A stretch of 64,000 nt of DNA from a virus, in IMG/VR virus record IMGVR_UViG_3300042541_002760, one strand, 5' to 3'. The notes under the pieces were generated by a model that searched no databases, was not told the origin of the DNA, and saw only the letters and a program-made list of their open reading frames with translations. A program made the position numbers and the translations under genes. Positions 8,760 through 62,480 of this stretch are shown piece after piece (position 1 is the stretch's first letter; each line of letters opens with the position of its first letter).

Positions 8760-9223
8760 CGCAAGTTTATCCAATACGATTGATTCGATTGATGACGGGT
8801 GAAATGCTAATGGCAGGGATATCGGATGGTGGTAAGTTGTCATATGTATTGGAGTGCCCAATGGTTTTGATTGCTGTCACATCATCAAGACAAAGAGAGA
8901 ATCAGATTCAAGAAGTAGCGGTTATGCTAAAAAATTGGATTGAATTTACTGCTGATGAGTACTATATCATCTCCAAAAAGGCAGTAATGTGCATCATGAA
9001 ACCAACAAGAGAAATTCTTGCAGACTACATTCAGGCAAAAATACATTCAGACATTATGGGCGATATGATCGATAGCGGATTGTCTGAAGGTAAATCTATC
9101 AATGACTTGAGTGATGAAGAAGACTCGCAGGATGAAAATTCTGAGGATGGGGATAGCGAACCATCATGGGATGATGAAGAGTATGACGAGTTTCCAGGTT
9201 GGGGTGGAGATCCACGGCTCTAG
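8756..9223 (+). CDS. Conserved hypothetical protein (Sm-like fold, acidic tail)
   Basis: IRLIRLMTGE N-terminal motif; ATGA overlap with uvsW. Confidence 0.65.
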   Translation: MTQVYPIRLIRLMTGEMLMAGISDGGKLSYVLECPMVLIAVTSSRQRENQIQEVAVMLKNWIEFTADEYYIISKKAVMCIMKPTREILADYIQAKIHSDIMGDMIDSGLSEGKSINDLSDEEDSQDENSEDGDSEPSWDDEEYDEFPGWGGDPRL

Positions 9224-9303
9224 GTACTTAAGTACTTACTATACTCAGTACTTACTATATTACTCAAAGGAGTACATTAAGTACTAGTAACTTAAGTAAC
9301 TTA
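9224..9303. repeat. AT-rich cluster of short direct and palindromic repeats (candidate replication origin)
   Basis: GTACTTAAGTAC palindrome (9224-9235), AGTACTTACTATA x2 (9231, 9247), AGTAACTTA x2 (9286, 9295) in a non-coding gap. Confidence 0.6.
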
Positions 9304-20934: not shown

Positions 20935-22860
20935 TTAATTGGTTAGGTCTACTACTTCACATGATCCTGCACTGCATGCAAAGGTTTGAGAACTCTTAGT
21001 GGAGTCTTCCTTTTCATACTTCATCAACTCGCTCCAATCAATAGAGAGCGGAAGTTTTGCTGCTGCTGCTTCGTACTCTTCCTTGGTGCAGTCCTGATAT
21101 GGAGCCTGAACATAGGAGTGATCCGAATGGGGCAAGAAACTCACACCCGATACTTCATCAAAGTGTGCATAGACCCATGCTCCCACTGCCATCCACTCAT
21201 ACTCCTTGACAGTCACCGTGATAGACGGCTTGTGTTCGCACCAATGTCGTTGATAAGTAAGCCACAACTCAAGATGCTGAATAGCAGTCAGGTCTGTACG
21301 GGTAATTGATCCCACAGCCTTCTGTGGGAACGAGAACACCATTGTGTGATCAGGACGCATAGCACATGGTTCAGCAGGGAATCCCTTGTCAATCATGAAC
21401 TGACACATGGGATCTTTAATATCTGCACGAACAGTACGAATGTAGTACTGATTATGACGAGGGTGAATGCCACTTGCGGAATCGGTCAACTGAGACACGG
21501 TTCCACTAGGCTTCACACAAGTAATCGCAGCAGCAGGATTGATGCCAATCTTCTTTGCCCACTCCTTGTTGGTTTCAATAGCAGTGGTACGAAGATTGAC
21601 AAGCAGTCTTTCCAATTCAGCACCCTGCCCCCGCATCAGTTTGTTGTCAAGAATGCCTGTGAGTGAAACACCAAGCAAGCATTCTTCTTCACAGTTCTTC
21701 TTCCACTCACTTGAGAGGTATGGGAAATTAGTAAGTGAGGCTTGCCATGTACCGAGAATGGTGGCAAGACGAACCTTGCGCTTCAGGGTATCAGGAGTGT
21801 CATCTGTACGAACAATTACTTCAGACAGATTGCAGAATTCCTTGTCGCGCAGAATGATCTCAGAGCAAGGATTCGTTCCGAACTCGTAAGTGGGATCACG
21901 GCGATCACCAAGTTTCTCCACAGTTTTCTGTGCAGCCTGACGATTAAAGATACCGCGTTCGCCACTCTTGGACTTGTAGAGTGAAAGCCACTCTTCCATG
22001 AATACGCCGATCTCGGGCTTCTCCTTGTATGAAACCGAATTGTTGGCTAATGCTCGTTGTGGATTTTCCAACCACCACTGCCCGACTTTAGCATCGCGCA
22101 TTCTCTCATCGGTGAGGTTTGAAAGAGAGATAAGAGCAGATCTACGCACTCCTCCAACCACAACAATTTCCGCAATCTTGCAGATGATGTCATGACACTC
22201 AATAGATGTGAGTTTTCTACCTGCACTCTTCTTAAAAGTACTGACGGTAAATCGGAAGAGATCTTCCAATGGCTGTGGCCCACTTGCTCGTCCACCGAAA
22301 GTCTTGAGACGCGCACCAAGAGGACGAATCTTAGAGGTGTCCCATCGGGGAATTTGACCTCCAATAAGTAGGGACACTAATTCGCGGTAGGCTTTTGCCC
22401 AACCTTCCTTAGAGTCCTTGACCACAATGAGTGTATCGCTTTGTGTAAACTCTTCAGCAATGGTAGGAAGTTTTTCAACATACTGTCTTTCCACACTAAA
22501 GCCAACTCCTGTGCCACACATAAGCACATAGAGGATCTCATCAAAGGCACGAACCTTGTTCACGGCAACATATGAGCAGTTGTATCCTGCGGTGTTGTCA
22601 CGCTTTAGGGCTTCTCCTGCGGTCATGAGAGAGCGCATGGAGGGCATTACCTCAAGGTTCAGAACTGCATCATGCAATTCATCGCGTACAGCCTTATTCA
22701 GTTTTACTCCCTTTTCATCAAAATGCTCATCAAAGAAACGGAAATAGCGATTAACTGTTTCCTCCCATGACTCTCGCCGCTTTGGGGATTCTGTGTCGAG
22801 CCAACGAGAATAACGAGAAAGATGAATGAATTCTTGATACAGTGTGGGAAGTGATTTCAT
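20935..22860 (-). CDS. nrdJ: Class II (adenosylcobalamin-dependent) ribonucleotide reductase
   Basis: YNCSY, GGVRRSA, GTNPCSEI, TCVKPSGT, C-terminal CSAGSC; no intein or intron. Confidence 0.95.
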   Translation of the reverse strand: MKSLPTLYQEFIHLSRYSRWLDTESPKRRESWEETVNRYFRFFDEHFDEKGVKLNKAVRDELHDAVLNLEVMPSMRSLMTAGEALKRDNTAGYNCSYVAVNKVRAFDEILYVLMCGTGVGFSVERQYVEKLPTIAEEFTQSDTLIVVKDSKEGWAKAYRELVSLLIGGQIPRWDTSKIRPLGARLKTFGGRASGPQPLEDLFRFTVSTFKKSAGRKLTSIECHDIICKIAEIVVVGGVRRSALISLSNLTDERMRDAKVGQWWLENPQRALANNSVSYKEKPEIGVFMEEWLSLYKSKSGERGIFNRQAAQKTVEKLGDRRDPTYEFGTNPCSEIILRDKEFCNLSEVIVRTDDTPDTLKRKVRLATILGTWQASLTNFPYLSSEWKKNCEEECLLGVSLTGILDNKLMRGQGAELERLLVNLRTTAIETNKEWAKKIGINPAAAITCVKPSGTVSQLTDSASGIHPRHNQYYIRTVRADIKDPMCQFMIDKGFPAEPCAMRPDHTMVFSFPQKAVGSITRTDLTAIQHLELWLTYQRHWCEHKPSITVTVKEYEWMAVGAWVYAHFDEVSGVSFLPHSDHSYVQAPYQDCTKEEYEAAAAKLPLSIDWSELMKYEKEDSTKSSQTFACSAGSCEVVDLTN

Positions 22861-22886
22861 GACGAACTCCTAATGATGCGTAGGGG

Positions 22887-22973
22887 TATTTAGAAGAGCA
22901 TCCAATGCTTCTTTTACATGAGAATATATTCTTCTAAAGGATATAATATACCCTATAGTGCAGGGGTTGTCAA
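22887..22973 (-). promoter_or_regulatory. Tandem promoters for nrdJ: sigma70-like plus late
   Basis: TTGACA-17 nt-TATATT (22945-22973) and CTAAATA (22887-22893). Confidence 0.65.
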
Positions 22974-23027
22974 GCACTATGCTCGTGTATCACAGTCGCT
23001 TATTGAGATATTCAAATTATGTTGAAT

Positions 23028-24836
23028 TTAATTTTTAGATGGATCACAGCCTTGCTTTGGGACACCATTAACATCAAGATGTCCAAAATATGTTGTAATA
23101 TCGGGGCATAGTTTTCTTAACTCGGGAAGGTCGAGATTCCCAGGGAAGGCGAGTGTCTGGAGACAAAAATTTGTTTGCGGATAGGGCGTACAACGCAATC
23201 TGCCAATAGATGCATTTGCCCCTGGGCTAAACCCATCTGGGGTGACGATATTTCCAGTATGACCGCCTTGTGATTCAAACCCTGGATTGCGACCATAGCA
23301 TGGTGATCCATTTGGATTACATCCTGGAACTATCAAATACCGTGCCCGATGTGGCTGATAACCATACCCAATAAAGTTAGCATTTGTTTGTGGAGTGCCA
23401 CTGTGTAGTCTGATGGTTCCTGTGCTACCGTGACTGCACTCGTCAAGCGTAAAATGATGTCTCGCTGGATGTCGTTCGCACGGTGGATCTGCATCAATAC
23501 TATAACCATGATGACCTGAACATGAACTATCTTGCAAGATGTTTGCATTTCCAATCAGAAAAAGGTGCTTCCATCTATCTTCTGTTGTGGCAGGGGTAAA
23601 CAAAGGTTCATCCCATAGGAAAATATTGGGGAAAAGAAAATTAGCACCAAGACCACCATCCGTGGGATTATCTGTTCCCTGTGCTGCAACACCTTCGGCA
23701 AATCGATTCATAACCCATCGAACCATTTGTGTGCCGTCTGCGGATATTCCTGTGGGATCAACAGTTTTCCACCAATCAGGTCTTATTTTTGAATTAATAT
23801 TTGCGGGATCAAAAGAACCTCCATATGTTTCAAACATATCTGCATGAATTTTATAATATATTGCATGAAGTAATGACGATACAGAGCAAGTAGGAATTCC
23901 AATCGCCCTGCCCTCATAAGAGGTATTGTCGTTATAGTAGGAATGGGCATTATAACATTGAAAAGAAAAACTTCCTTTTTGTGCACCTGTCGTGCCGAAC
24001 GGATTTGGAGCATAGTGCCCAACACTCCATGCGGGATCAGGCTCTGTTTCGCCTTCAGTACATGTCGGAAGAACTCTATACTGTGCAGTATATCCACCAA
24101 ATAATGGCAATGTAAGTACATGATCAGGAAGTGGAAATTGCCTTCCAAAAGAATTTTCCATCCCACTAATTCCTGTAACTCCGTATGGTATATTACCACT
24201 AGGAGTTGTCGGAAGTGATCCAACCATTAAGTTTTGTGCATGCTCAGGATTTGCGCCTCGCGTTGCAACACGAACCATGCTATATTCATCAGCACAATTT
24301 GCACCATGTGCCATATAGCCTGTATATCGATATCGATTGAATCCAGAAATTACTTGAAATCTACTAGGAACGCTGACCTGACCACCAGGAGCCATTGCAT
24401 AAGGTTGTTTTCTAATCACCGCAGGAGGGCTTGTGGGGCTTGAAGGAGATGCATAGTAATATGCATTTCCTGCGGAATTTTTTTCATAATCACATGGGTT
24501 GATTTGACGCGGGTCACCGTTAACATCGGTAAGAGCATTGGGGCTTGTGCAGTACAGTAATCCTAACTCTTGACTCAATGATGGGCGACCACTACCGCCT
24601 AGGCGGCTGTATCGATCAACGCCAGGAAGTGGATAAATTGTCCAAGAACAGTCACTCCCGTCCACCTCAATGCAAGTTTCTAGTTGGCAAATACCCTGAC
24701 CGTTTGGGCAATAACCATAGCATATGGTTCCCGAACATTCAGGCTCACCTTGACATGAAGGACATATAAAATCAGCAGGACATTCGGGGAAAAACCCTGT
24801 TGTTTGTGGATATAATTTATGCCATGCCCAGCCCAT
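23028..24836 (-). CDS. Cys/Pro/Gly-rich 602-aa protein, possible fibre-tip protein
   Basis: Long ORF with AAGGA RBS directly after a fibre gene; Cys-dense N-terminus. Confidence 0.55.
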   Translation of the reverse strand: MGWAWHKLYPQTTGFFPECPADFICPSCQGEPECSGTICYGYCPNGQGICQLETCIEVDGSDCSWTIYPLPGVDRYSRLGGSGRPSLSQELGLLYCTSPNALTDVNGDPRQINPCDYEKNSAGNAYYYASPSSPTSPPAVIRKQPYAMAPGGQVSVPSRFQVISGFNRYRYTGYMAHGANCADEYSMVRVATRGANPEHAQNLMVGSLPTTPSGNIPYGVTGISGMENSFGRQFPLPDHVLTLPLFGGYTAQYRVLPTCTEGETEPDPAWSVGHYAPNPFGTTGAQKGSFSFQCYNAHSYYNDNTSYEGRAIGIPTCSVSSLLHAIYYKIHADMFETYGGSFDPANINSKIRPDWWKTVDPTGISADGTQMVRWVMNRFAEGVAAQGTDNPTDGGLGANFLFPNIFLWDEPLFTPATTEDRWKHLFLIGNANILQDSSCSGHHGYSIDADPPCERHPARHHFTLDECSHGSTGTIRLHSGTPQTNANFIGYGYQPHRARYLIVPGCNPNGSPCYGRNPGFESQGGHTGNIVTPDGFSPGANASIGRLRCTPYPQTNFCLQTLAFPGNLDLPELRKLCPDITTYFGHLDVNGVPKQGCDPSKN

Positions 24837-41356: not shown

Positions 41357-43795
41357 TTATGCCTGTGTAAGAAGTGCGCGAACGGTTACTCCACTATATC
41401 CAAAACTAGTTGCTGTGTAGCGAATATAATTGCCTACTGTATCCTGTGCCGCATTCCAAGAACTCCAATTAGTTCCATCTGTCGAATACTGCCATGTACC
41501 GTAGGAGGACAGAGTGACAGTATCATTCAATAGTTCATTGTTGTTGCTTGCATCATACAAACGAATTCTCATATTTGGGATATTTGATCCCCATGCAGCA
41601 ACCTGTTTCCATGCGAATATCTTGCTTGCCGTAGAAGATTTTGACAGAGACGGCTGATAATGTGAATCCTGATTGGAGTCCTCATACAAACAAGCAATAG
41701 AGTATATGCGAGTGGGAACGCAGAGTTCGCCCATAATGTCAAACGCAATCTTGAACTGAATGTAATCAGATACAGCAGCGGCTTCCAAATCCGCTCCTAT
41801 AGCAATTTCTGTCCATGCACCACTATTATCGTCTATGCCACTTGTGCGATACCACATCTTGTAGGACTCAACGGGGAATCCGAGTCCGTATTCTCCTGCA
41901 TATTCCATATGGTCAACATAGGCATGATAAAGTTTAGTGGCATTTGTAGTTGCAAGTTTAGGAGTGATGACTGCCTGACGGGTCGTTGACTCGTAGTACG
42001 CATCCGCAATGAAGGGGAAGACATACAGCCAATTCGATCCCGATGTCACGGTTGAGGGTACGACGAACATCCAACCGTCTTCTGTCCACAGGGTAATTGT
42101 TGCTTGCGGAAACAGACCATCACTTGCTCCCGAGGGCGTTGTGGTCAACTTCAATCTGTTCAAGTTGGCTCCGACCAACTTTTCAAACTGCGATCCATCC
42201 GTGACATACGGGGTCACATAGACTCCGAATCGTCCACTTGTAGTTGCCACGAACAATCGGTCGAGTGATGTCGAATAGTCAACCTGTGACATGGTTTGCA
42301 AAGCGGTATATGTGACGCTTCCGCCTGGTGGGACTTCGAGCATCGCATCGGCTAGCCAACTCGTGTTTCCCGCCGTCAGGGTCGCCACGGGACATCGGTA
42401 GACCCTAGAGGTTGTCGTGAAGTAGAGGCTCTTTGATCCCAAAGCCGCACCGTGGTTCACGCTGAAGACTCTTCCGCTGTTGATCTGTGAAATGGTTCCC
42501 GTGGTCGCAACGCTTCCCGTCTTGAGGACGAATGCACTCACGCTTGTTCCGCTTGCAGGACCGCCCGTGAGCGCACCGACAGTCAATGCCGCCCGAATGT
42601 TGTACTTCACGATGATTGCATTTGCCGTAGTCGTTGTCGCATTCACGGAATACAGATCATGGTTCGTTGCGCTTCGCCCGTCATCGTCCACCGCAATTGT
42701 GGCAAGGACATTTCGGGCGGCGGAATGCACGGTATGGGTTCCCGTGCCCGCACCGCTGATGCTTTGTATCGAACCGTTCAGCGTGGTCGAGAGGGAGAAT
42801 TGGTTCGTGCCGAGGTTCGTGCCGATGACATAGTAGACCGTGGCGGTAGACAAGCCCGTTGGGAGCGTGGTGGTGGTGGTGAACTGCACGGGGTCACCGA
42901 CATTCAGTCCGTGGCTGCTCAACGACAGGATGTTCGTGGTGCTGTAGGTCACCGTCGCCGTCGCCGTGCCGAGCGTTCCCACCGCATCGGTGAGGAGATA
43001 CGAGGCACGGACATTGTCCGTCGTGGTCGCTTCGGTGATCGTGGTTCCGCCGCTTGCGAATGTGCTGTGATTGAGTCCCTTGATGAGGTGAATACCGCCG
43101 TTGAGCAAGGTGGCATTCGTCACCGCAAGGGCTATGCGAATTTCTTCAATCACATACGATGTACCTCCACTCAGATTTACGGGTGCGCTAATTGTCAGAG
43201 AGGTATCACTTGCAATCGCAGTAATCTCATACCATGTGGTGACTGCGGTTGGGTCTGTGGTTCCAAATCCAATTCTTGCTCCAACTGCAATACGGTCGGT
43301 GGTGAACTGTGTGCTTGACCCTGTGATGGTGGTGGAAGAGCCACTTGTGGAAACTGTTCCCGATGTATGCTCATACACGATTCCACGAATCGAACGGACA
43401 TTCTTGTTTCCTGATACCGTGGTTCCTGATAGCGTTATGAATCCCTTGAATGTCAGGGTCGATGTGCTTGAGTTGAACTCCGTGAGGGCGACTGTCCTCG
43501 TGGCGGCGGCGGTTGCGTTGGAAGCGGTGAACACCCAATAGATGTTGTCCGACCACTTGTACACATAGGGCATGAACTGCGATCCCGAGGTGAAGACTTC
43601 GGCGATGTTCACAATGGCTGATGGCTTTGAAGAAATATATTTGTCTTCTGGGTTTGCTCCCGTGGCTTGGCGAATAAGCGAGGAAAGCATGGTCTTGGTG
43701 GAATCATAACCACCCGCAGTTATACCAACGGCAGGAATTCCTCCTGTAAATCCTATAGTGTTCCCCGTAAAATGATGATCTACTGCTGCTTTCAT
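41357..43795 (-). CDS. 812-aa Thr-rich virion/fibre-tip protein with GC-rich internal segments
   Basis: [10 protein letters not shown] and [21 protein letters not shown] beta-domains common in phage structural proteins; ATGA overlap with the upstream gene. Confidence 0.7.
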
Positions 43796-46044
43796 GTGAT
43801 TCTCCTAATCTTTATGAACAATCCTACGCTTTGTATATCTGTATTACTATTTATTACGAAATCAATCATGTCACCCGCACTCATTCCCGACCATGCGGTG
43901 ATGCCTGTGTTTGAAGCCTTGAATTGACCGCTAAGGCTTGGGTAGTCTGATCCAACAATTGTTGTAGTTGATGGATAATTGGCAAATGATGATTTCTTCA
44001 CATCAAACTGTATCGAACCTGTTTGACCCGCAACGACATACCATTCCAATGCTTGGCAATCATAGGGAATTAAACGATATCCTTTTTTTCCTATTGATAT
44101 ATTATCAGGAGTAGAATCTATGAATACAGAAAGAACATCCTCGCTTGGCCCTGTTGCACCCTGTGATCCTGTTGCACCTGTGACACCTTGAGAACCTGTA
44201 ATACCCTGAGAACCTGTTACACCTTGAATGCCTTGAGATCCTGTAGCACCCGTAGCACCTGTGACACCTTGAATGCCTTGAGATCCTGTAGCACCCGTAG
44301 CACCTGTGACACCTTGAATGCCTTGAGATCCTGTAGCACCCGTAGCACCTTGTGCACCAACGGAACCTGCACTAATGGTTGTCTTTACATAAGAAACATC
44401 TTCTCCCTCATAGGAAGTAATAACATTAAAACTAGCAGAACCGCTTACTCTAGCAGCATAAACTTTAAAAACTAATCTATCTGTTGTTAAAAACGAGAAA
44501 GCAGAAGCATATGCAACAGTCCATCTAATTTCTGCTTTGGTTTGATTAGAAAACTGTTCAGAATACCCATTTCTGAGTAGAGTTTCTGTTCCTGATAGAT
44601 CTCTTTTCCACAATTGAAAATTTAATCTTGCAATACAGTTTACATTATCGTCTTGATATGCATGAATGATTCTCTCTGCAATGCCTGTAGGAAGAGATCC
44701 TACTCCTGGTTCGCCTACATCAGTTATAAATGATGCAATGAAAACATCACTAGTACCACTAACAGCGGTGGTAATACTTGTAATTGCATTAGGTGATGGA
44801 GATGTAACTGCTTTTTTGTATCCTACAACATCAGCAGTTACTCCTGCCCAAAGATAATAGATTCTACCAGCATTTCCACCTGCGATTCCTTGAGGACCTG
44901 TAGCACCTGTTGCACCCTGAGATCCTGTAGCACCAGTAGCACCAGTGGAACCTGTGATACCATTAGAACCTGTTGCACCTTGAGAACCTGTTGCTCCTGT
45001 GACACCTTGAATGCCTTGAGAACCTGTTGCACCTGTAACACCTTGAGAACCTGTAGCACCTGTGACACCTTGAATACCCTGTTCACCTGTGACACCTTGA
45101 ATACCCTGTTCACCTGTAGCACCCGTGACACCTTGAATGCCTTGAGAACCTGTTGCACCTGTAACACCTTGAGAACCTGTAGCACCTGTGACACCTTGAA
45201 TACCTTGAGAACCTGTTGCACCTGTTGCACCTGTGACACCTTGAATACCTTGAGAACCTGTTGCACCTGTTGCACCTGTGACACCTTGAATGCCCTGTTC
45301 ACCTGTAGAACCTGTGACACCTTGAATGCCCTGAGAACCTGTTGCACCTGTGACACCTTGAATACCTTGAGAACCTGTTGCACCTGTTGCACCTGTGACA
45401 CCTTGAATGCCCTGAGATCCTGTTGCACCTGTGACACCTTGAATACCTTGAGAACCTGTTTCACCCTGTGATCCCGTGACACCTTGAATGCCCTGAGAAC
45501 CTGTGGCTCCTGTGACACCTTGAATTCCTTGAGAACCTGTAGCACCCTGTGATCCTGTTACACCTTGAGATCCCGTTGTACCTGTGATGCCTTGAATGCC
45601 TTGAGATCCCGTTGCACCTGTGACACCTTGAATGCCTTGAGATCCTGTTGCACCTGTTGCACCTGTGACACCTTGAGAACCTGTAGCACCTGTGACACCT
45701 TGAATGCCTTGAGATCCTGTTGCACCTGTGACACCTTGAGGACCTGTTGCACCTGTTGCACCTTGAATGCCTTGAGATCCTGTTGCACCCTGTGATCCTG
45801 TTGCACCCTGAATGCCTTGAGATCCTGTTGCACCCTGAGAACCTGTGGCTCCCACGGATCCTGTAACACCTTGAGATCCTGTTGCACCTGTAATACCCTG
45901 AATGCCTTGAGAACCTGGCGCACCCGTGGCACCATATGTACTTGAAGTATAGACATCCCATGCAATACCGTTCCATTGCCAAGAACGAACACCATTTGTG
46001 TACATTTCATTCAGTGCTGGTGATGGAGGAAAATCTAATGGCAT
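43792..46044 (-). CDS. Collagen-like protein with long [12 protein letters not shown] array
   Basis: [14 protein letters not shown] head; over 100 consecutive G-x-x triplets; terminal beta domain. Confidence 0.9.
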
Positions 46045-54812: not shown

Positions 54813-55304
54813 TTAGCCGTTAGGAACAATCATTGCATGTACTTGGGTAAGACCACTTGGAAGTTTATGTGTTTCGACACGAAGAGCAAGACCATGACCA
54901 AGGAGATGAGTAATTCCATCATCCTTTGTATATCCATATACAGATCCATCAGCACGAAGAGTTCCACCAAAACGAACGAGTGGAATAATTTCTTCGGTCT
55001 GTGTTGACAATCTCATAGCACAGTCTTTGGTCATTGTGAAATCAAGACCGATCATTTGAAGTCTACCCTGTGCCTGTTTCAAGGCAGACACAGGGTCGAT
55101 GTATGGCTTTGCAGAAAGTGCACCCAAGTAGGTATTGATGCGAGTGATTGCAACAGGACTCAATGAAGACAGATTATAATTGCCATCGAGAGAATTGTCA
55201 CCATCCTGTGGGCCAACACGCCCAACACTTCCAGATGCATCATATGCACTTTGGTGGGGTGCATTTTCATTAATTGTTTTTCTCAGTTGCTTATAAGACT
55301 TCAT
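54813..55304 (-). CDS. Probable internal head protein with capsid-targeting-like N-terminus
   Basis: MKSYKQLRKTINE resembles the T4 IP CTS (MKTYQEFIAE). Confidence 0.6.
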   Translation of the reverse strand: MKSYKQLRKTINENAPHQSAYDASGSVGRVGPQDGDNSLDGNYNLSSLSPVAITRINTYLGALSAKPYIDPVSALKQAQGRLQMIGLDFTMTKDCAMRLSTQTEEIIPLVRFGGTLRADGSVYGYTKDDGITHLLGHGLALRVETHKLPSGLTQVHAMIVPNG

Positions 55305-56285: not shown

Positions 56286-56585
56286 TTAGTTCTTTGCGGG
56301 ATCGATAGTTTTTTTGCCATTTGTGTCAATATGAGTCTGTACAGCCTTGGCAAAATTGTTGGCTTCCTCAGTCGTTCCACGGCAGTTGCACTCGCGAATT
56401 GCTTCATTGAAGTGCTTAACAAGAACATTTCGTTGTTCTTCAAGAACCGTTTGTTCGACAACTTTAATTGCTGCCTCTTTTGCCTTGTCATTGAGACAAG
56501 GATTGATTTCAACATCGTTACGATGCTCTTCTAAGAATTTTGTAATATCGGCAACGATTTTGGAATTGAATGGATTGTTAAACAT
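56286..56585 (-). CDS. Hypothetical late protein (99 aa)
   Basis: TATAAATA at 56608-56615, AGGAG RBS. Confidence 0.7.
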   Translation of the reverse strand: MFNNPFNSKIVADITKFLEEHRNDVEINPCLNDKAKEAAIKVVEQTVLEEQRNVLVKHFNEAIRECNCRGTTEEANNFAKAVQTHIDTNGKKTIDPAKN

Positions 56586-56658
56586 GGTCTCTCCTGTGGA
56601 TACTTGTTATTTATAGATCACGATCATCCGCTTCATATGCTTTCTTTGATATGTTGCA

Positions 56659-59600
56659 TTATGATCCCTTTTCGGGGTTGTGTCCCCATACCTTAAGTGC
56701 TAACAATTTACGAGTAGGTTTTTTGTCTTCGTCTCTCAAAGGCCCTTTTGCGCCTTTCATTCGATTGATGAAATTGACTTGCTTCCCTGCCCATTTCCAA
56801 TCATTATCAGACCATTTTTCCATGGGGGTATCTAGCATTCGAATGATTGCACGGGCAGAATCTCGACCTGTACTAATTTTACCACCGTCTGCACCTGCCT
56901 TACCTGCCTCCTTGCGGGACAGTCCTGCCTCAGTTCCGTCATCAGAATCAAGGAATGTATCAATCTCCTTGCCCGACATATTTACAAGTTTTTGCCATTC
57001 CTTATAGAGATCCGACATCTCCTCTTCAGAAGTATCTTCCTTTACGGACACACAATTAGGAACTTTTTTCCCATTCTTCATCTTCATTCCCAATTGTTTA
57101 AACCCTACCCAACAAGGCTTATCTTCTTCAATTTCTTTCCGCTCGCCAGGGGTGTCATGCTTGTAGGTTTTTACAATCTTATCGGTGCCGATGAGTAACG
57201 GGCCTCTCTTACTCATAGAAGTCCATTTCAACACATTGTTGATTTTCTTAGCCTCATCAAGCCATGTCTCAGACGGCTCTACATCTTCTCCATGCATCTT
57301 CCATGCAGTCGCATAGAACACTTCCTTCCACCGCTTACCATATTGTTTTCGGAATGATGCTTTGGTTTTTTCATCCTTTGAGAAACTTCGTGCAGCACCT
57401 TTGGGTGGGCTAACTTCAAGTAAAAAGAATTCGAAGTCTTCGTTGATATCAGTCTTAGGCTGATTCGAACCCAACTCAGAATTGCGAATCTCTTTGAGGA
57501 ATTCAATATAGGTTCGTGCTAGATATGCCCCATCCTGCATATTGCGGGTCAGGCAGCGTTCTTCATATGCAATAGAAAGGCGAATCTTATTGTTGTTTGT
57601 TGTATCGCTCTGATCGATCTTCGCAAGGCGTTCGAATGCATCGTCCTGTTCGTATCGATTGTTTAACTCTTTTAACTGTCCGTTTTTTGTGAGTTTTTCA
57701 TAAAGTGTATTGCTATTAAGATTGACATGTTCTTCTTTTTTCGTTTGATTCTGTGGGTATATTGCCTCCGCAGGATCAACCAACATTCCTGTCTTGCTCA
57801 GGAATTGCAGACCGAGAAGGACTTTGGTGGACATATGGTTGCGATCACCAATTGAGAATTTGATGTTTGGGTATTTCTTTCCATGGAATTCAATGTCCAT
57901 GAAGATAACAAGTCGCTTCTTCTCCCCAATACCACTCTTGACAATAATTCGACTGACGATTTTCTTGGTAATCTTTTTACCATTCGACAGTTTGAAGGTA
58001 ACCGTGTGGTTTCCATTGTCTTTGATGTCTTCGCCATGAATCATATTGTAGCCACTGTTGCCTGTATCGACCTTGGCTTCATATTCGACTCCATCAATCT
58101 TAACTGTTTCACGAACAGTGAGGTTGGAGAACAGTTTCCAATTGGATTTGTTGAGAATATATTCAACAAAATCTTCGACCAACTCTTTGCCCTCGACATT
58201 GTTCTTGCCCTTGCCGTCTTCATAATAGCGGTAGTAGATATTACCACTGCCTGGGCTTGCATTCATTTCAATGATGTATGGCTTACCATCATTGATTACA
58301 TGATCAACTCCGACATAGTAGCACTTGCTAACCCGAGCGGCTTCCTCCACCAACTTGATTTCTTCATCAGAGAGTTGGAATGCACCACCCTTTGAACCTC
58401 GGGCAATGTTTGTGCGGAAATCCTTAGGAGCCTTATCCCGCTTTGCACAGGCAAAAATTTTACCATTCAGGCAGATGCTGCGAACATCATTCTTGAAATC
58501 AGGCAGGAATTCCTGCATAATGATTTCGGCATTGTATTTCCATAGAGTTTGTAGAACAGACTTCAGGCTTTCCATGCTTTCAATCTTGGACACGCCGATG
58601 CCTTCAGCCCCCGTAAGAGTCTTTACGATGACGGGGAACTTACCACCAATTTCCTTAACGGCAGTTTCAATATTGCTTTCGTCTGCAACAAATGTTGTGC
58701 GTGGGTGTGGGAGATTGTGTTTCTTGAGAGCAATTGCAGTTTCTAGTTTGTTTGCACAGAGTTCCATTCCTCCACGCTCATTGATCATGAACACTCCATT
58801 GTTCTGCAAGATGGTCATGATAGCAACACCGATATCACTATTCATCACACCACCACGAACAACTGCTACTGTGTCGCTTGGGATAACAGTGATATCTTTA
58901 CCTTCACCGTCATAATTCTTGATAGTGATTTTCTTCGAAGTAACATTTGAAATTTCTACTTGTGCTTTAGAAGTCTTCACTGCATAGAATTCAATTTTGC
59001 GCTTCTTGCAGATTTCCTGCATCTTTTCGATTGTATCGGATAGATCTTTTTCCGAAGAAGTTAGTGCAAGGATTGTTACCTTGTCACTTGGGTTTACAGC
59101 CTCTGAGATATATGACTCCCCAAGACTCAATCCCTTACGAACATCGCTGTACATCTTCTTCTTGGTGGCATTATCCTTACCTGGAACGCCCGTGGCAAAC
59201 TTTTTAAAGTCTCCATCGAAAGCAGCAGATCTCATCTTGGAAGCAGACATTCCCTCAACACCTTGAGAGTCATCATCCCGTGCCTCACCCGCCTGAACTA
59301 CTTCGAATTTTTCAAATGAATATACACGCTTCTTAGGATCACGATCTGCAACCTTGCCCTTATACTTGGCAATGTTTTTAAAGTTTTCGACTTGGTCACT
59401 TCCCGCAACCATGATGATGTTCTTATATCCCAATGAGCACACATATAGAACGGCAGTATACGGATCCTTTGCCATTCCTACAGGAAAGTTGCCCTTAGGA
59501 AAAAACTTCTTAAGGTATGCAACCTTTTGCTTATGTGATAGGGGGTTCTTCTTTGAGTCTTGTGTTTCAGATGCAAATATGAAATGATCTGCATTGTGCT

Positions 59601-59730
59601 TCTGCGCTTCGGAAACAATCTTGTCTACCAAGACACCGTGACCGATGGTCGGGGGGTTCATTCTGCCGAAAGCAATAACTGCTGTGTCTTTTTTTGCTTC
59701 GTCAATTCGATGTAAGAAACGCTCTATCAC
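56659..59730 (-). CDS. Polyprotein: cytidylyltransferase-like + RimK-like ATP-grasp + RimB-like retropepsin protease + short motifs + DUF3140-like domain
   Basis: FGRMNPPTIGH/MSASKMR; CANK, FPVIVK..G.EG.GV, QEF, DVR, FRTN, GVD, IEMNASPG; AKVDTG (D555), R.HM...VLLG; LVNMS.KE...LKVWGHNP. Confidence 0.85.
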   Translation of the reverse strand: MIERFLHRIDEAKKDTAVIAFGRMNPPTIGHGVLVDKIVSEAQKHNADHFIFASETQDSKKNPLSHKQKVAYLKKFFPKGNFPVGMAKDPYTAVLYVCSLGYKNIIMVAGSDQVENFKNIAKYKGKVADRDPKKRVYSFEKFEVVQAGEARDDDSQGVEGMSASKMRSAAFDGDFKKFATGVPGKDNATKKKMYSDVRKGLSLGESYISEAVNPSDKVTILALTSSEKDLSDTIEKMQEICKKRKIEFYAVKTSKAQVEISNVTSKKITIKNYDGEGKDITVIPSDTVAVVRGGVMNSDIGVAIMTILQNNGVFMINERGGMELCANKLETAIALKKHNLPHPRTTFVADESNIETAVKEIGGKFPVIVKTLTGAEGIGVSKIESMESLKSVLQTLWKYNAEIIMQEFLPDFKNDVRSICLNGKIFACAKRDKAPKDFRTNIARGSKGGAFQLSDEEIKLVEEAARVSKCYYVGVDHVINDGKPYIIEMNASPGSGNIYYRYYEDGKGKNNVEGKELVEDFVEYILNKSNWKLFSNLTVRETVKIDGVEYEAKVDTGNSGYNMIHGEDIKDNGNHTVTFKLSNGKKITKKIVSRIIVKSGIGEKKRLVIFMDIEFHGKKYPNIKFSIGDRNHMSTKVLLGLQFLSKTGMLVDPAEAIYPQNQTKKEEHVNLNSNTLYEKLTKNGQLKELNNRYEQDDAFERLAKIDQSDTTNNNKIRLSIAYEERCLTRNMQDGAYLARTYIEFLKEIRNSELGSNQPKTDINEDFEFFLLEVSPPKGAARSFSKDEKTKASFRKQYGKRWKEVFYATAWKMHGEDVEPSETWLDEAKKINNVLKWTSMSKRGPLLIGTDKIVKTYKHDTPGERKEIEEDKPCWVGFKQLGMKMKNGKKVPNCVSVKEDTSEEEMSDLYKEWQKLVNMSGKEIDTFLDSDDGTEAGLSRKEAGKAGADGGKISTGRDSARAIIRMLDTPMEKWSDNDWKWAGKQVNFINRMKGAKGPLRDEDKKPTRKLLALKVWGHNPEKGS

Positions 59731-60926
59731 GAGTTTACCTTCCTGTTTTGTCTACTAAATCGTAGTCGATTTACCAATTTAGTGACTCTTCCTGAACGAG
59801 AAACCACAATACCCTCAGGATCTGTTGGAGAAATCCCGTTGTCATCCACGAAGAAATGCCCGAAACTAGACAGCATATAGAACTTACCGAGCAAAATTTC
59901 TTTTGCTTTGGCGATAAGATTATGTAGTTCAAACATAGAATTGAACTGTGATTCGTATGCATCAACAAAGGCAAGCAACTTGTTCAGTATATCTCTTTTG
60001 CCCTGCTTGCCTTTTTCTGTCTTTAGTTTTTCAATGTCCTTGTTTAACTTGGTTTCCAAATTCAACTTAAGACCACGGGCAGAAAATTGTGAAAGACCGC
60101 CATTAATGGTGGCATTTATATATGGAAGGATGTATTCAACTAACTGTGCATTGGAAAGAAGAACCTTCAGGAACGGCGATACCTTTTTTGATTTTCCTTC
60201 ACAGTCTTTGATCATGCCCATAAGTTTGCCATATTCATCAGGCTTGAGAAGTGCAGCCGTGATGTCATATATGTTGGGGTCAGTGAACCACACATTTGCA
60301 TTCTTTTTCAGGGTACTAGCATCAAAGTTGAAGGAGACAGCAGATAACTCCTGCATCGTTTTTCCACTATAGACGGTATGAAAAGCAATTCCAAGTTTTG
60401 CAGAGGAAACCGATTTCCCAATGGCACTGTCCTTTTCAATTGCATACATGATCGTATTGGGAGCAAAAGTAATATATTCTTTTCCATCAATCGTCTGTGA
60501 TTTTTTGGAATCCATCGTAAACATCAAGTCGCCCTGCAATACTCCCTTGATGCCAAGTCCTGGCAGATACTTTAAGCACTCGATCAATTTTGCGGCAAGA
60601 TCGGAAATCGACACACCTTTCCGTATTTCTGCTTCGGTGTGATATGCAGAGACAGTTTTGCTAAATGCTCCCTTGGTAGCAACAAAAAACTTATTGTTTT
60701 CGGGATTAATCCCACACACAATAGCAGGTTTCCCATCCCATTTGGTGGAGAGTCCTAAAGAAGTCGAGCCTGTTTTCAGGCTTTCTGTAATATCTTTGAG
60801 GAATGCAATAGCCAACTTTAAGCCTTTTTCACCCTCAAGAAGCATCAGATCTTCTATATGGTCTAGATGCTTATTTCGAACTACTTCTTCGGAAAGAACT
60901 CTGTTTGCTTGTTTGAATGACAGCAT
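59727..60926 (-). CDS. ATP-dependent ligase-fold nucleotidyltransferase (DUF6267-like) with CTS-like N-terminus
   Basis: HLDHIED, TKWDG (motif I), QGDLMF, EGIVV (motif IV), KLV (motif V); MLSFKQANRVLSE; CTAAATA at 60945-60951. Confidence 0.75.
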   Translation of the reverse strand: MLSFKQANRVLSEEVVRNKHLDHIEDLMLLEGEKGLKLAIAFLKDITESLKTGSTSLGLSTKWDGKPAIVCGINPENNKFFVATKGAFSKTVSAYHTEAEIRKGVSISDLAAKLIECLKYLPGLGIKGVLQGDLMFTMDSKKSQTIDGKEYITFAPNTIMYAIEKDSAIGKSVSSAKLGIAFHTVYSGKTMQELSAVSFNFDASTLKKNANVWFTDPNIYDITAALLKPDEYGKLMGMIKDCEGKSKKVSPFLKVLLSNAQLVEYILPYINATINGGLSQFSARGLKLNLETKLNKDIEKLKTEKGKQGKRDILNKLLAFVDAYESQFNSMFELHNLIAKAKEILLGKFYMLSSFGHFFVDDNGISPTDPEGIVVSRSGRVTKLVNRLRFSRQNRKVNS

Positions 60927-60963: not shown

Positions 60964-61038
60964 TGGGCGGGATGGGAGTCGAACCCACATGAGCGCACTT
61001 ATAAGGTGCGACCTTTTACCACTATCAGGCACCCGCCC
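60964..61038 (-). tRNA. tRNA-Ile (anticodon UAU), CCA not encoded
   Basis: Cloverleaf: GGGCGGG/CCCGCCC-A acceptor, CGCAC-CTTATAA-GTGCG anticodon arm, GTGGG-TTCGACT-CCCAT T arm. Confidence 0.92.
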
Positions 61039-61043
61039 GTGAA

Positions 61044-62480
61044 TTAAGACCAATCACCCATAGAGGGCTTCTTTCCCTTCTTGTAGCCATACCCCCCGCC
61101 ACCCTTGTTTGGAGAGTCAAAGCCATTGTCTGTGTTCTCATCCTCTGCATCAGCAGAATGATTCCCCTGAATCAACTGTTGCTGTGATTCATCAACATCA
61201 AACAACTTCATCTTCGAACGATCTATCCCAATCACAAACTTACGATTGGCAGCAACATCATTGTAACGGTTCTTCAATTGCTTGACCATGACCTGACCGA
61301 CTGCATCCAATTGTTCGGTTGCAATCAGAGCAAACATAAAGTCCGCAGTGGCAGGTAGCCCGAATGATTCCGAGGTATCGGTCAATTCGACATCCGTATT
61401 GCCAAAGCCTGAACGGTTCGTCTGTGTTGCAGTAAAGATTGGCACCTTCATCTCAACTGCAAGACCACGAAGTTCCTCTGCAATTGCCTTGATATAGGTA
61501 TACGAATTGACATTTGCTCCTGGCTTAAACCGAGTCGAAGCACAGATATTGAGATAGTCAATGAAGATGATGTCGGGCTTAAAGTTCTTCTTCAGGCGCA
61601 GTTCATCAAGCAGATGCCGAAAATGGTTGGCATTCGCTGCGGCAGTGGGATATTCCTTGATCAGGAGTTTCCCCGTGATTCCCATAGTCACCTTGGACAG
61701 ACGCTTGGCATAGATATCGATGGGCAACTTCTTTAGTTCATCCATTGAAATATCCATAAGATTGGCATCGATTCGCTCTGCGATTCTTTCCTCTGCCATC
61801 TCGCAGGTGATGTATAGGACATTCTTGCTCTGTGTTAGGCAGTTGGCAGCATGATGACACATGAACAGGCTCTTGCCCACTCCTGTGCCCGCGAGGATCA
61901 CATTGAGAGTCTTGTCGGGAACACCTCCTGCCGTGATTCGATTGAAGAAGTCGAGATCGAAAGGAGTCTTCTGTTCTACTCGATGATAGAACTCATAACG
62001 CTGCTCGGCATCATCAATGAAATCGTGTCCGATATGTTCATCAAAAGAAACGCTCAGTGCCGATGTTAGGATTTCGGGAATGGCATTCTTTGATCTTCCA
62101 TTGGCTTTCTTCTCATCAAGAAGTTCAATAGACTCCATGAGTGCATTGTAGACTGCCTTGTCCTTACAGAACTTCTCGGTCTGATCGATGAGCCATGCCT
62201 CATCAGGTTCATCGATAGTCTTTTCGAGAGAATCCACGAGTTTAACACACTCGTCAAATTCTCCCTGTGACAGCCCATCCTGCTGATTGAGGATGATATT
62301 CAGTGCTTCGCGGGTAGGGGCAATGTTATACTTGCCGATAAACTCAGAGACTGTCTTGAACAATCTCTTCTCACAGGTGTCATGAAAGTACTCTTCTCGC
62401 AGGAAGGGTTGCACTCTACGGGTGAAATCTGCACGGTGCAACAGGCTTCGCAGGATAATGAGTTCGATCTTATCTGTCAT
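61044..62480 (-). CDS. gp41: Replicative DNA helicase gp41
   Basis: AGTGVGKS, EMAEERIAERIDAN, IKEYPT, IDYLNIC, SESFGLPATAD, QLKNRY. Confidence 0.97.
   Translation of the reverse strand: MTDKIELIILRSLLHRADFTRRVQPFLREEYFHDTCEKRLFKTVSEFIGKYNIAPTREALNIILNQQDGLSQGEFDECVKLVDSLEKTIDEPDEAWLIDQTEKFCKDKAVYNALMESIELLDEKKANGRSKNAIPEILTSALSVSFDEHIGHDFIDDAEQRYEFYHRVEQKTPFDLDFFNRITAGGVPDKTLNVILAGTGVGKSLFMCHHAANCLTQSKNVLYITCEMAEERIAERIDANLMDISMDELKKLPIDIYAKRLSKVTMGITGKLLIKEYPTAAANANHFRHLLDELRLKKNFKPDIIFIDYLNICASTRFKPGANVNSYTYIKAIAEELRGLAVEMKVPIFTATQTNRSGFGNTDVELTDTSESFGLPATADFMFALIATEQLDAVGQVMVKQLKNRYNDVAANRKFVIGIDRSKMKLFDVDESQQQLIQGNHSADAEDENTDNGFDSPNKGGGGYGYKKGKKPSMGDWS

Follow-up and report, generated by a model that had tools for sequence, protein, structure and literature searches.

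A phage polyprotein joining nucleotidyltransferase, RimK-family ligase, RimB-like protease and DUF3140 domains as candidate head cargo of T4-like phages

The window analysed here is a stretch of 64,000 nucleotides of viral DNA that forms part of the IMG/VR virus record IMGVR_UViG_3300042541_002760 (147.6 kb, judged 65% complete, with 163 open reading frames (ORFs)). One of its ORFs encodes a chain of 1023 amino acids (115 kDa, pI 9.1) in which a nucleotidyltransferase, a RimK-family ligase, a RimB-like protease and a DUF3140 domain follow one another behind a short N-terminal leader (Table 1). An earlier sequence-only reading had described it as a capsid-processed polyprotein; the single ORF at 56659-59730 was confirmed, and profile searches recovered all four of the domains it had named (PHROG 3041/395, PF08443/TIGR00768, PF05618 and DUF3140). 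The best-supported explanation, to which a probability of roughly 0.6 may be given, is that the protein is packaged into the phage head, cut by the prohead protease and injected into the host, as inferred from comparison with relatives together with one proteome that contains a homologue.

It is proposed that the leader of about 11 residues would act like the capsid-targeting sequence (CTS) of T4 and direct the entire 115-kDa polypeptide to the scaffolding core inside the prohead. A gp21-type prohead protease would then cleave both the leader and the disordered linkers at (I/L/V/M)xE sites, on the C-terminal side of the Glu. The predicted products are a leader of 1.5 kDa, which would be lost, a 22-kDa transferase (pI 9.5), a 52-kDa RimK-RimB unit and four or five small modules, comprising an 11-kDa helical module, three small basic pieces of 3-6 kDa and, as the last of them, a 14-kDa DUF3140 domain. 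Like IPI-III and Alt, the internal proteins of T4, the freed pieces would remain in the filled head and exit with the DNA, so that the enzymes would act in a new host ahead of any phage gene expression.

The N-terminal leader and the linker sites

The leader MIERFLHRIDE/A (the slash marks the predicted cut) is disordered in the AlphaFold2 model, where residues 1-8 have a predicted local distance difference test (pLDDT) score below 50. Among relatives of 40-98% identity it takes the form MKxFxQxIxE/A, with examples such as MKRFTEIVAE/A, MKSFNQILSE/A, MKKLTQIITE/A and MKNFAQHLTE/A. The CTS of T4 reads MKTYQEFIAE (PMC8442874) and is all that the T4 internal proteins have in common (PMC3012670), and Alt is cut at ITE-6 and LTE-619 (PMC5694885). 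In Syn9 gp184 the same leader lies 80 amino acids away from the transferase domain, which indicates that it is not part of the transferase fold. Leaders also head the stand-alone RimK-RimB protein of Pelagibacter phage Mosig (MQVQPFKNYLEE/A) and the stand-alone RimK of Melnitz (MTQKFSQFITE/E), and, taken together with the spacing in Syn9 gp184, these cases show the leader behaving as a portable signal.

The same type of N-terminus recurs within the source record, where 10 of the 163 ORFs begin with MK[ST][FY] and carry a Glu at position 9-13, against 0.78 expected (Poisson P ~1e-8). These ten look like a family of capsid-targeted proteins, to judge from their N-termini. Most of them lie in two blocks beyond the limits of the window (record C1:4993-12804 and 21881-24349), and one is found at 54813-55304 of the window; their starts include MKTYFQLIE/A, MKSFADYLSE/G and MKSYKQLRKTINE/N.

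Within the chain, the seven (I/L/V)xE sites listed in the sequence-only reading are all present exactly as written (E11, E210, E678, E772, E826, E869 and E898). The linker between transferase and ligase holds twin sites, SLGE205/SY and YISE210/AV, of which E205 is invariant and E210 is at least 90% conserved among variable neighbours. An LxE followed by [ILV]xE/A is found in this linker in 34 of 34 sequences (14.4 in shuffles), [ILVM]xE occurs in 29 of 37 leaders (7.0 in shuffles) and within 32 amino acids of the protease domain in 33 of 37 sequences (21.7 in shuffles), although these counts tell less in favour of processing than they might, as the compared sequences are related by descent and the counts cannot be read as probabilities. 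Farther along, C-terminal blocks come and go among the relatives, and each insertion or deletion junction bears x[ILVM]xE/[A/S]; sites 772, 869 and 898 fall in coils of low pLDDT.

The earlier proposal that domain boundaries coincide with xE sites holds for the transferase-RimK junction and for the C-terminal junctions, but the RimK/RimB boundary has no credible site, and for this reason the two domains probably stay joined as one piece after processing. V-x-E541 was considered as a cut site at this boundary and rejected, as it forms part of the opening strand of the PF05618 domain and as the two domains stay united in phage proteins that consist of RimK-RimB alone.

Homologues, genomic setting and the case for packaging

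More than 100 full-length fusions of this kind, with identities of 40-98% and on contigs of up to 182 kb, were found among metagenomic sequences in a large protein database. Among cultured phages, no protein covers at least 80% of the polyprotein, and the whole architecture was not found. The cultured phages carry parts of it: RimK-RimB fusions are limited to Mosig and two YerA41-type Yersinia phages, and a RimK without its RimB-like partner is present in Melnitz and a small number of cyanophages, in which the gene has been interpreted as auxiliary. The virion evidence comes from S-CREM2 gp154, which matches residues 15-191 (E 2.6e-18), starts with MKNFSSFLTE/A, is encoded by a gene that follows the late sigma factor gene, and was detected in virions by mass spectrometry (PMC10665884). 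A gene for a Peptidase_S77 (gp21-type) protease is encoded by two relatives, 93% and 98% complete, which carry homologues of 85% and 57% identity, and the gp23 of one relative has YLRE/S at the cut position of T4 gp23. In YerA41, a gene annotated as LysW-like (8916-9272) lies about 3.6 kb from the RimK-RimB gene; LysW is a carrier protein acted on by the RimK-family ligase LysX.

A number of observations weigh against packaging and processing. For presence in virions and ejection into the host, the support comes by homology, through S-CREM2 gp154; the authors of the S-CREM2 proteome allow for carry-over of abundant proteins (PMC10665884); and the label 'structural protein' for the RimK-RimB gene of YerA41 was judged weak as support, because polymerases and ribonucleotide reductase also appear in the proteome from which the label derives. 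The leader of the window protein is the most divergent of its family, and the stand-alone cyanophage RimK of S-RIM8 has no leader. The chain holds 21 [ILV]xE motifs in total against 15.5 expected from its composition, 14 of them within domains, where several are conserved for structural or catalytic reasons (e.g. E488); the raw count is thus no evidence, and what survives of the claim that these sites are processing signals is the comparative pattern, namely their conservation at linkers and junctions across the family. The gene is placed between helicase gp41 and primase gp61, a region of replication genes, and a search of the window found no T4 late promoter TATAAATA ahead of it or of its DUF6267 partner gene (the word occurs 4 times in the window, where 2.3 occurrences would be expected). 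The source record lacks gp20, gp21, gp22 and gp23 (portal, prohead protease, scaffold and major capsid protein) in a Pfam search and in tblastn with the Syn9 genes, an absence that is uninformative about the phage itself, as the record covers only part of its genome. At the level of the enzymes, the equivalog models for the S6-glutamate ligase (NF007764, 70.4 against 331 bits) and for the RimB aspartic endopeptidase (NF052261, 23.5 against 200 bits) both failed, so the RimK and RimB identities given earlier stand at family level (PF08443, TIGR00768, PF05618) and not as orthology. The proposal of a capsid-processed and packaged protein is accordingly supported in part, by the CTS-like leader, the conserved linker sites, the detection of S-CREM2 gp154 in virions and the gp21-type protease of relatives.

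Several of these points would be accounted for if the chain were a cytoplasmic multi-enzyme that is never packaged and works intact in the infected cell as an auxiliary or take-over protein, in the way assumed for the stand-alone RimK of cyanophages, its leader being an ordinary N-terminal helix or expression signal and its LxE motifs features of linkers or helix caps. The position among replication genes with no TATAAATA upstream, the overall site density near chance, the leaderless RimK-family genes that are read as auxiliary metabolic genes in cyanophages, and virion detections of homologues that could be carry-over are all compatible with such a protein. It is nevertheless the less likely explanation by a wide measure, as the leader can be detached from the fold (Syn9 gp184), is common to unrelated proteins of the phage far above chance and matches the T4 CTS, and as the motifs are conserved mainly in disordered linkers and where modules meet, with modules swapped precisely at xE junctions.

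The phage itself is T4-like (Kyanoviridae-like). Its helicase gp41 (61044-62480) is 58-60% identical to cyanomyovirus helicases, and near-identical DNA was not found in cultured phages. Helicase gp41 is followed by a tRNA-Ile gene, the 399-codon DUF6267 gene and the polyprotein gene, with primase gp61 and ThyX further down. The GTG start codon of the polyprotein overlaps the stop codon of the DUF6267 gene (GTGA), a ribosome-binding site (AGGAAGG) lies 8 nucleotides upstream of it, and more than 100 homologues share the start residue. The KxDG motif of the DUF6267 protein resembles those of covalent nucleotidyltransferases and ligases, and the protein has a 17-residue leader of its own (MLSFKQANRVLSE/E) that the Pfam model does not cover. 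DUF6267 and a 'cytidyltransferase' remain neighbours downstream of gp41 in cyanomyoviruses and pelagimyoviruses (Syn9, HTVC008M, C48C1 and one 150-kb metagenomic relative), and the profile phrog_455 covers the two kinds of protein together, which hints at the existence of fused DUF6267-'cytidyltransferase' forms.

Further features were noted in the window. The tRNA-Ile (anticodon UAU; 60964-61038, minus strand), between gp41 and the DUF6267 gene, is its sole tRNA, and the GC content rises to 0.52 at 42001-44000, against about 0.42 in the rest of the window. Just downstream of the polyprotein stop codon, the exact late-promoter word TATAAATA occurs at 56608-56615 (minus strand), 23 nucleotides before the ATG of a 99-codon ORF (56286-56585); the genes after this ORF are possible late or virion genes and encode a 313-residue protein rich in Gly, Ser and Thr and a protein of 163 residues with a leader.

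Table 1. Features of the polyprotein and its partner gene (coordinates refer to the window)
Feature	Residues	Position	Strand	Basis or remarks
Whole ORF	1023 in all	56659..59730	-	115 kDa
Leader MIERFLHRIDE/A, candidate capsid-targeting sequence	1-11	59698..59730	-	ends in IxE site; precedes first beta-strand of transferase
HIGH-superfamily nucleotidyltransferase, NMNAT/NadD/PPAT type	12-210	59101..59697	-	PHROG, invariant motifs, AlphaFold2/Foldseek
Transferase-RimK linker, twin sites SLGE205/SY and YISE210/AV	201-215	59086..59130	-	disordered, low pLDDT
RimK-family alpha-L-glutamate ligase (ATP-grasp)	215-532	58135..59088	-	profiles; E488-x-N490 metal site; K364/K370
PF05618 RimB-like retropepsin-fold aspartic protease	533-656	57763..58134	-	profile; catalytic D555 in KxDTGNSG
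Post-protease linker, ends TLYE678/K	657-678	57697..57762	-	pLDDT 35-59
Acidic three-helix module, ends FLLE772/V	679-772	57415..57696	-	AlphaFold2 helices, pLDDT 82-91; generic helical-bundle matches only
Small basic module (VSPPxGxARxFSK...YATAWKMH), ends WLDE826/A	773-826	57253..57414	-	family comparison
Small basic module (KRGPLLIGTDKIVKTY..TPGE), ends EIEE869/D in low-confidence coil	827-869	57124..57252	-	comparison, AlphaFold2
Beta-hairpin mini-module of 29 residues (PCWVGF...VPNCV)	870-898	57037..57123	-	xE sites on both flanks
DUF3140 domain	899-1023	56662..57036	-	profile; more than 50 invariant positions
DUF6267 partner gene, upstream of polyprotein	399 in all	59727..60926	-	KxDG ligase-like motif (STKWDGKP)

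Enzyme domains, the glutamate run and the C-terminal modules

The nucleotidyltransferase is matched over residues 11-210 by the PHROG 'cytidyltransferase' profile 3041/395 (E 2e-52) and carries the motifs GRMNPPTIGH (TxGH) and GMSASKMR (of the ISxSxxR type), within which G22, R23, N25, P26, P27, T28, G30, H31 and R167 are invariant in 36 diverse homologues (GRxNPPTxGH and SxxxxR167). Its AlphaFold2 model (pLDDT 87.6) retrieved NadD, NadM and PPAT with Foldseek at probability 1.0 (E 3e-6 to 2e-4, TM-score ~0.5). The Pfam model CTP_transf_like (PF01467) stayed below its cut-off for this domain (18.6 against 21 bits), and a single-sequence search of the PDB with residues 1-215 gave no match. With a profile of the same residues, the best PDB hit was the TmcAL-like protein 3gmi (1.2e-4), limited to the C-terminal motif. 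So faint a similarity does not point to a substrate, and the transferase could not be placed in a sub-family.

The ligase was identified by PF08443 over residues 327-497 (E 1.9e-29, 103.1 bits against a cut-off of 21) and, narrowly, by TIGR00768 rimK_fam over residues 233-494 (146.8 bits against a cut-off of 143.4). K364, K370, D476, E488 and N490 are invariant in 36 homologues, and the nearest solved structures are RimK of Pseudomonas (7qyr, 4.6e-24) and of E. coli (4iwx, 2.6e-19). The protease matches PF05618 over residues 540-656 (32.4 bits against a cut-off of 27), and D555-T-G within KxDTGNSG is invariant among the homologues. A homodimer model of the protease domain sets D555 opposite D555 with the C-terminal strands touching, and its ipSAE of 0.60 (best control 0.00; at least 93% contact agreement between runs; pLDDT at least 88) shows a likeness to solved retropepsin dimers, which exist, rather than proof of binding, and may reflect memory of those structures; among proteins of solved structure, this mark is reached by 20 of 30 pairs and 1 of 23 single chains. 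On the basis of their motifs and models, the transferase, the ligase and the protease all look active.

About 40 of 120 relatives encode a run of six to nine Glu residues some 20 residues after the RimB-like domain, followed directly by LxE. RimB is reported to recognize at least six contiguous Glu residues, internal runs included (PMC11957791), and the Glu6-9 run of the relatives fits this published rule, which suggests that it may serve as a built-in substrate or an auxiliary site of self-cleavage. In the clade of the window protein the run is reduced to KKEE, and it is likewise absent from the most distant clades, so that it cannot be essential.

These properties also bear on the possibility that the chain processes itself in the manner of a retroviral polyprotein, its own RimB-like retropepsin dimerizing and cutting the chain with no need for the prohead protease, in relatives at the poly-Glu run beside the domain. 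The published ability of RimB to cut Glu runs of this length, even within a chain (PMC11957791), the presence of such a run in about 40 of 120 relatives and the side-by-side D555 residues of the dimer model would be in keeping with it. Such a mechanism is improbable, however, given that the window protein and the most distant clades lack the Glu run and yet keep the [ILVM]xE sites, that the other linkers have no poly-Glu, and that the run, where present, is itself followed by an LxE site.

About as improbable is a packaged protein acting inside the particle or in its assembly, with RimK adding to the C-terminal Glu ends that the prohead protease makes, either those of head proteins or that of its own tail, or with the basic modules serving as DNA counter-ions. 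Each gp21-type cut would leave a C-terminal Glu of the type that RimK extends, the RimK-RimB fragment of relatives would end in ...EEEEEELSE, which resembles the tail of S6, and several modules are basic, but it is doubtful that ATP and glutamate are supplied within a prohead, the clade of the window protein does without the Glu run, no such modification is known in T4-like heads, and neither the DUF3140 domain nor the helical module is basic.

Helices make up most of the last 370 residues, and the AlphaFold2 model of residues 651-1023 is of moderate quality (pLDDT 67, predicted template modelling score 0.33). Foldseek searches of this part against the PDB returned nothing at E 0.001 or better, and a wide VIA-align comparison of the same residues yielded no more than generic helical bundles (Z at most 8.7) over residues 690-760, with the DUF3140 part barely covered. 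Membership of the small modules varies by clade: the PCW...VPNCV hairpin insert is confined to the clade of the window protein, its motif recurring in cyanophage proteins, and this clade is without the FKTKTGK...SPKDK module of its relatives. The best-conserved part of the C-terminal half is DUF3140 (PF11338), matched over residues 911-1006 with 31.5 bits against a cut-off of 25, and a stand-alone viral cluster of 132 residues also exists.

Relation to known systems and possible function

The closest parallel to the proposed packaging is offered by IPI-III and Alt of T4, which likewise have a leader of about 10 residues ending in (I/L)xE/A and close to MKTYQEFIAE, share nothing but this leader with otherwise unrelated proteins of the same phage, are cut after Glu and, in the case of Alt, an ADP-ribosyltransferase cut at both ends, include enzyme cargo. 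T4 differs in using one leader per protein, whereas here many cargo units with internal sites stand behind a single leader; moreover, a nucleotidyltransferase, a RimK and a RimB-like protease are not among the known contents of the T4 head, and packaging is inferred in the present case. S-CREM2 gp154 and Syn9 gp184 share the homologous transferase domain and an N-terminal leader, and Syn9 also the DUF6267 neighbour downstream of gp41, but they are stand-alone proteins of 287-382 residues rather than the first domain of a 1023-residue fusion. The ejection proteins of phiKZ and SPN3US are also processed by the prohead protease, a gp21 homologue that cuts after Glu, in a jumbo lineage as opposed to the T4-like one considered here.

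Polyvalent proteins (Iyer et al. 2017, PMC5512222) resemble the chain in being multi-domain, delivered with DNA and cut into working units, with the difference that processing is here predicted to be carried out by the head protease; scans with Pfam, PHROG and NCBIfam found no zincin-like MPTase or other catalogued polyvalent domain in the chain. Retroviral Gag-Pol is likewise a polyprotein with a dimeric DTG retropepsin-fold protease that matures inside a capsid (dimer and maturation being predictions for the phage protein), but homology is limited to the protease fold, and the embedded protease is here probably not the processing enzyme. The pairing of a RimK-family ligase with a DTG protease of PF05618 is known from Pseudomonas, and its fusion has a precedent in a bacterial RimBK hybrid (PMC11957791). 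The order of domains in that hybrid is RimB-RimK as opposed to RimK-RimB, and the phage pair, in contrast to that of Pseudomonas, lacks a RimA, sits within a larger polyprotein and fails both equivalog models.

Literature searches found no paper on 'DUF3140' or 'cytitidyltransferase', and a search combining RimK, bacteriophage and virion returned only the RimB paper. Publications exist for each of the elements, namely a leader that targets the capsid, cleavage after Glu, hybrids of RimK and RimB, and 'cytidylyltransferases' in virions. As the sequence-only reading had supposed, neither the papers nor the cultured phage records searched contained the four-domain fusion as one head-cargo polyprotein.

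With regard to function, the RimK domain would add alpha-linked glutamates to the C-terminal Glu of a protein, the default candidate being ribosomal protein S6, and the dimeric RimB-like domain would trim or stimulate glutamylation. A far-reaching scenario, which we put forward only tentatively and consider doubtful as a whole, is that a widespread group of aquatic T4-like phages carry a glutamylation writer/eraser pair in the capsid and inject it, accompanied by a transferase of NMNAT/PPAT type and by DUF3140 as an effector, so that the tail of host S6 or another Glu-ended target would be re-tagged within seconds, before phage transcription; in most relatives, their own Glu6-9 tail, cut at the following LxE, would mimic the C-terminus of S6 as a built-in substrate or timer. 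The packaging proposal is testable in cultured phages with stand-alone modules (Mosig, Melnitz and S-CREM2).

If the packaging proposal proves true, the known cargo of T4-type heads, so far small inhibitors and a single ADP-ribosyltransferase, would extend to a series of enzymes for metabolism and protein tagging that travel as one polyprotein. It would also provide the first setting for viral use of RimK/RimB chemistry and supply a concrete hypothesis for the 'cytidylyltransferase' repeatedly seen in cyanophage virion proteomes, and the MK[ST][FY]...xE leader would become a simple rule for predicting the injected proteins of uncultured marine and freshwater myoviruses.

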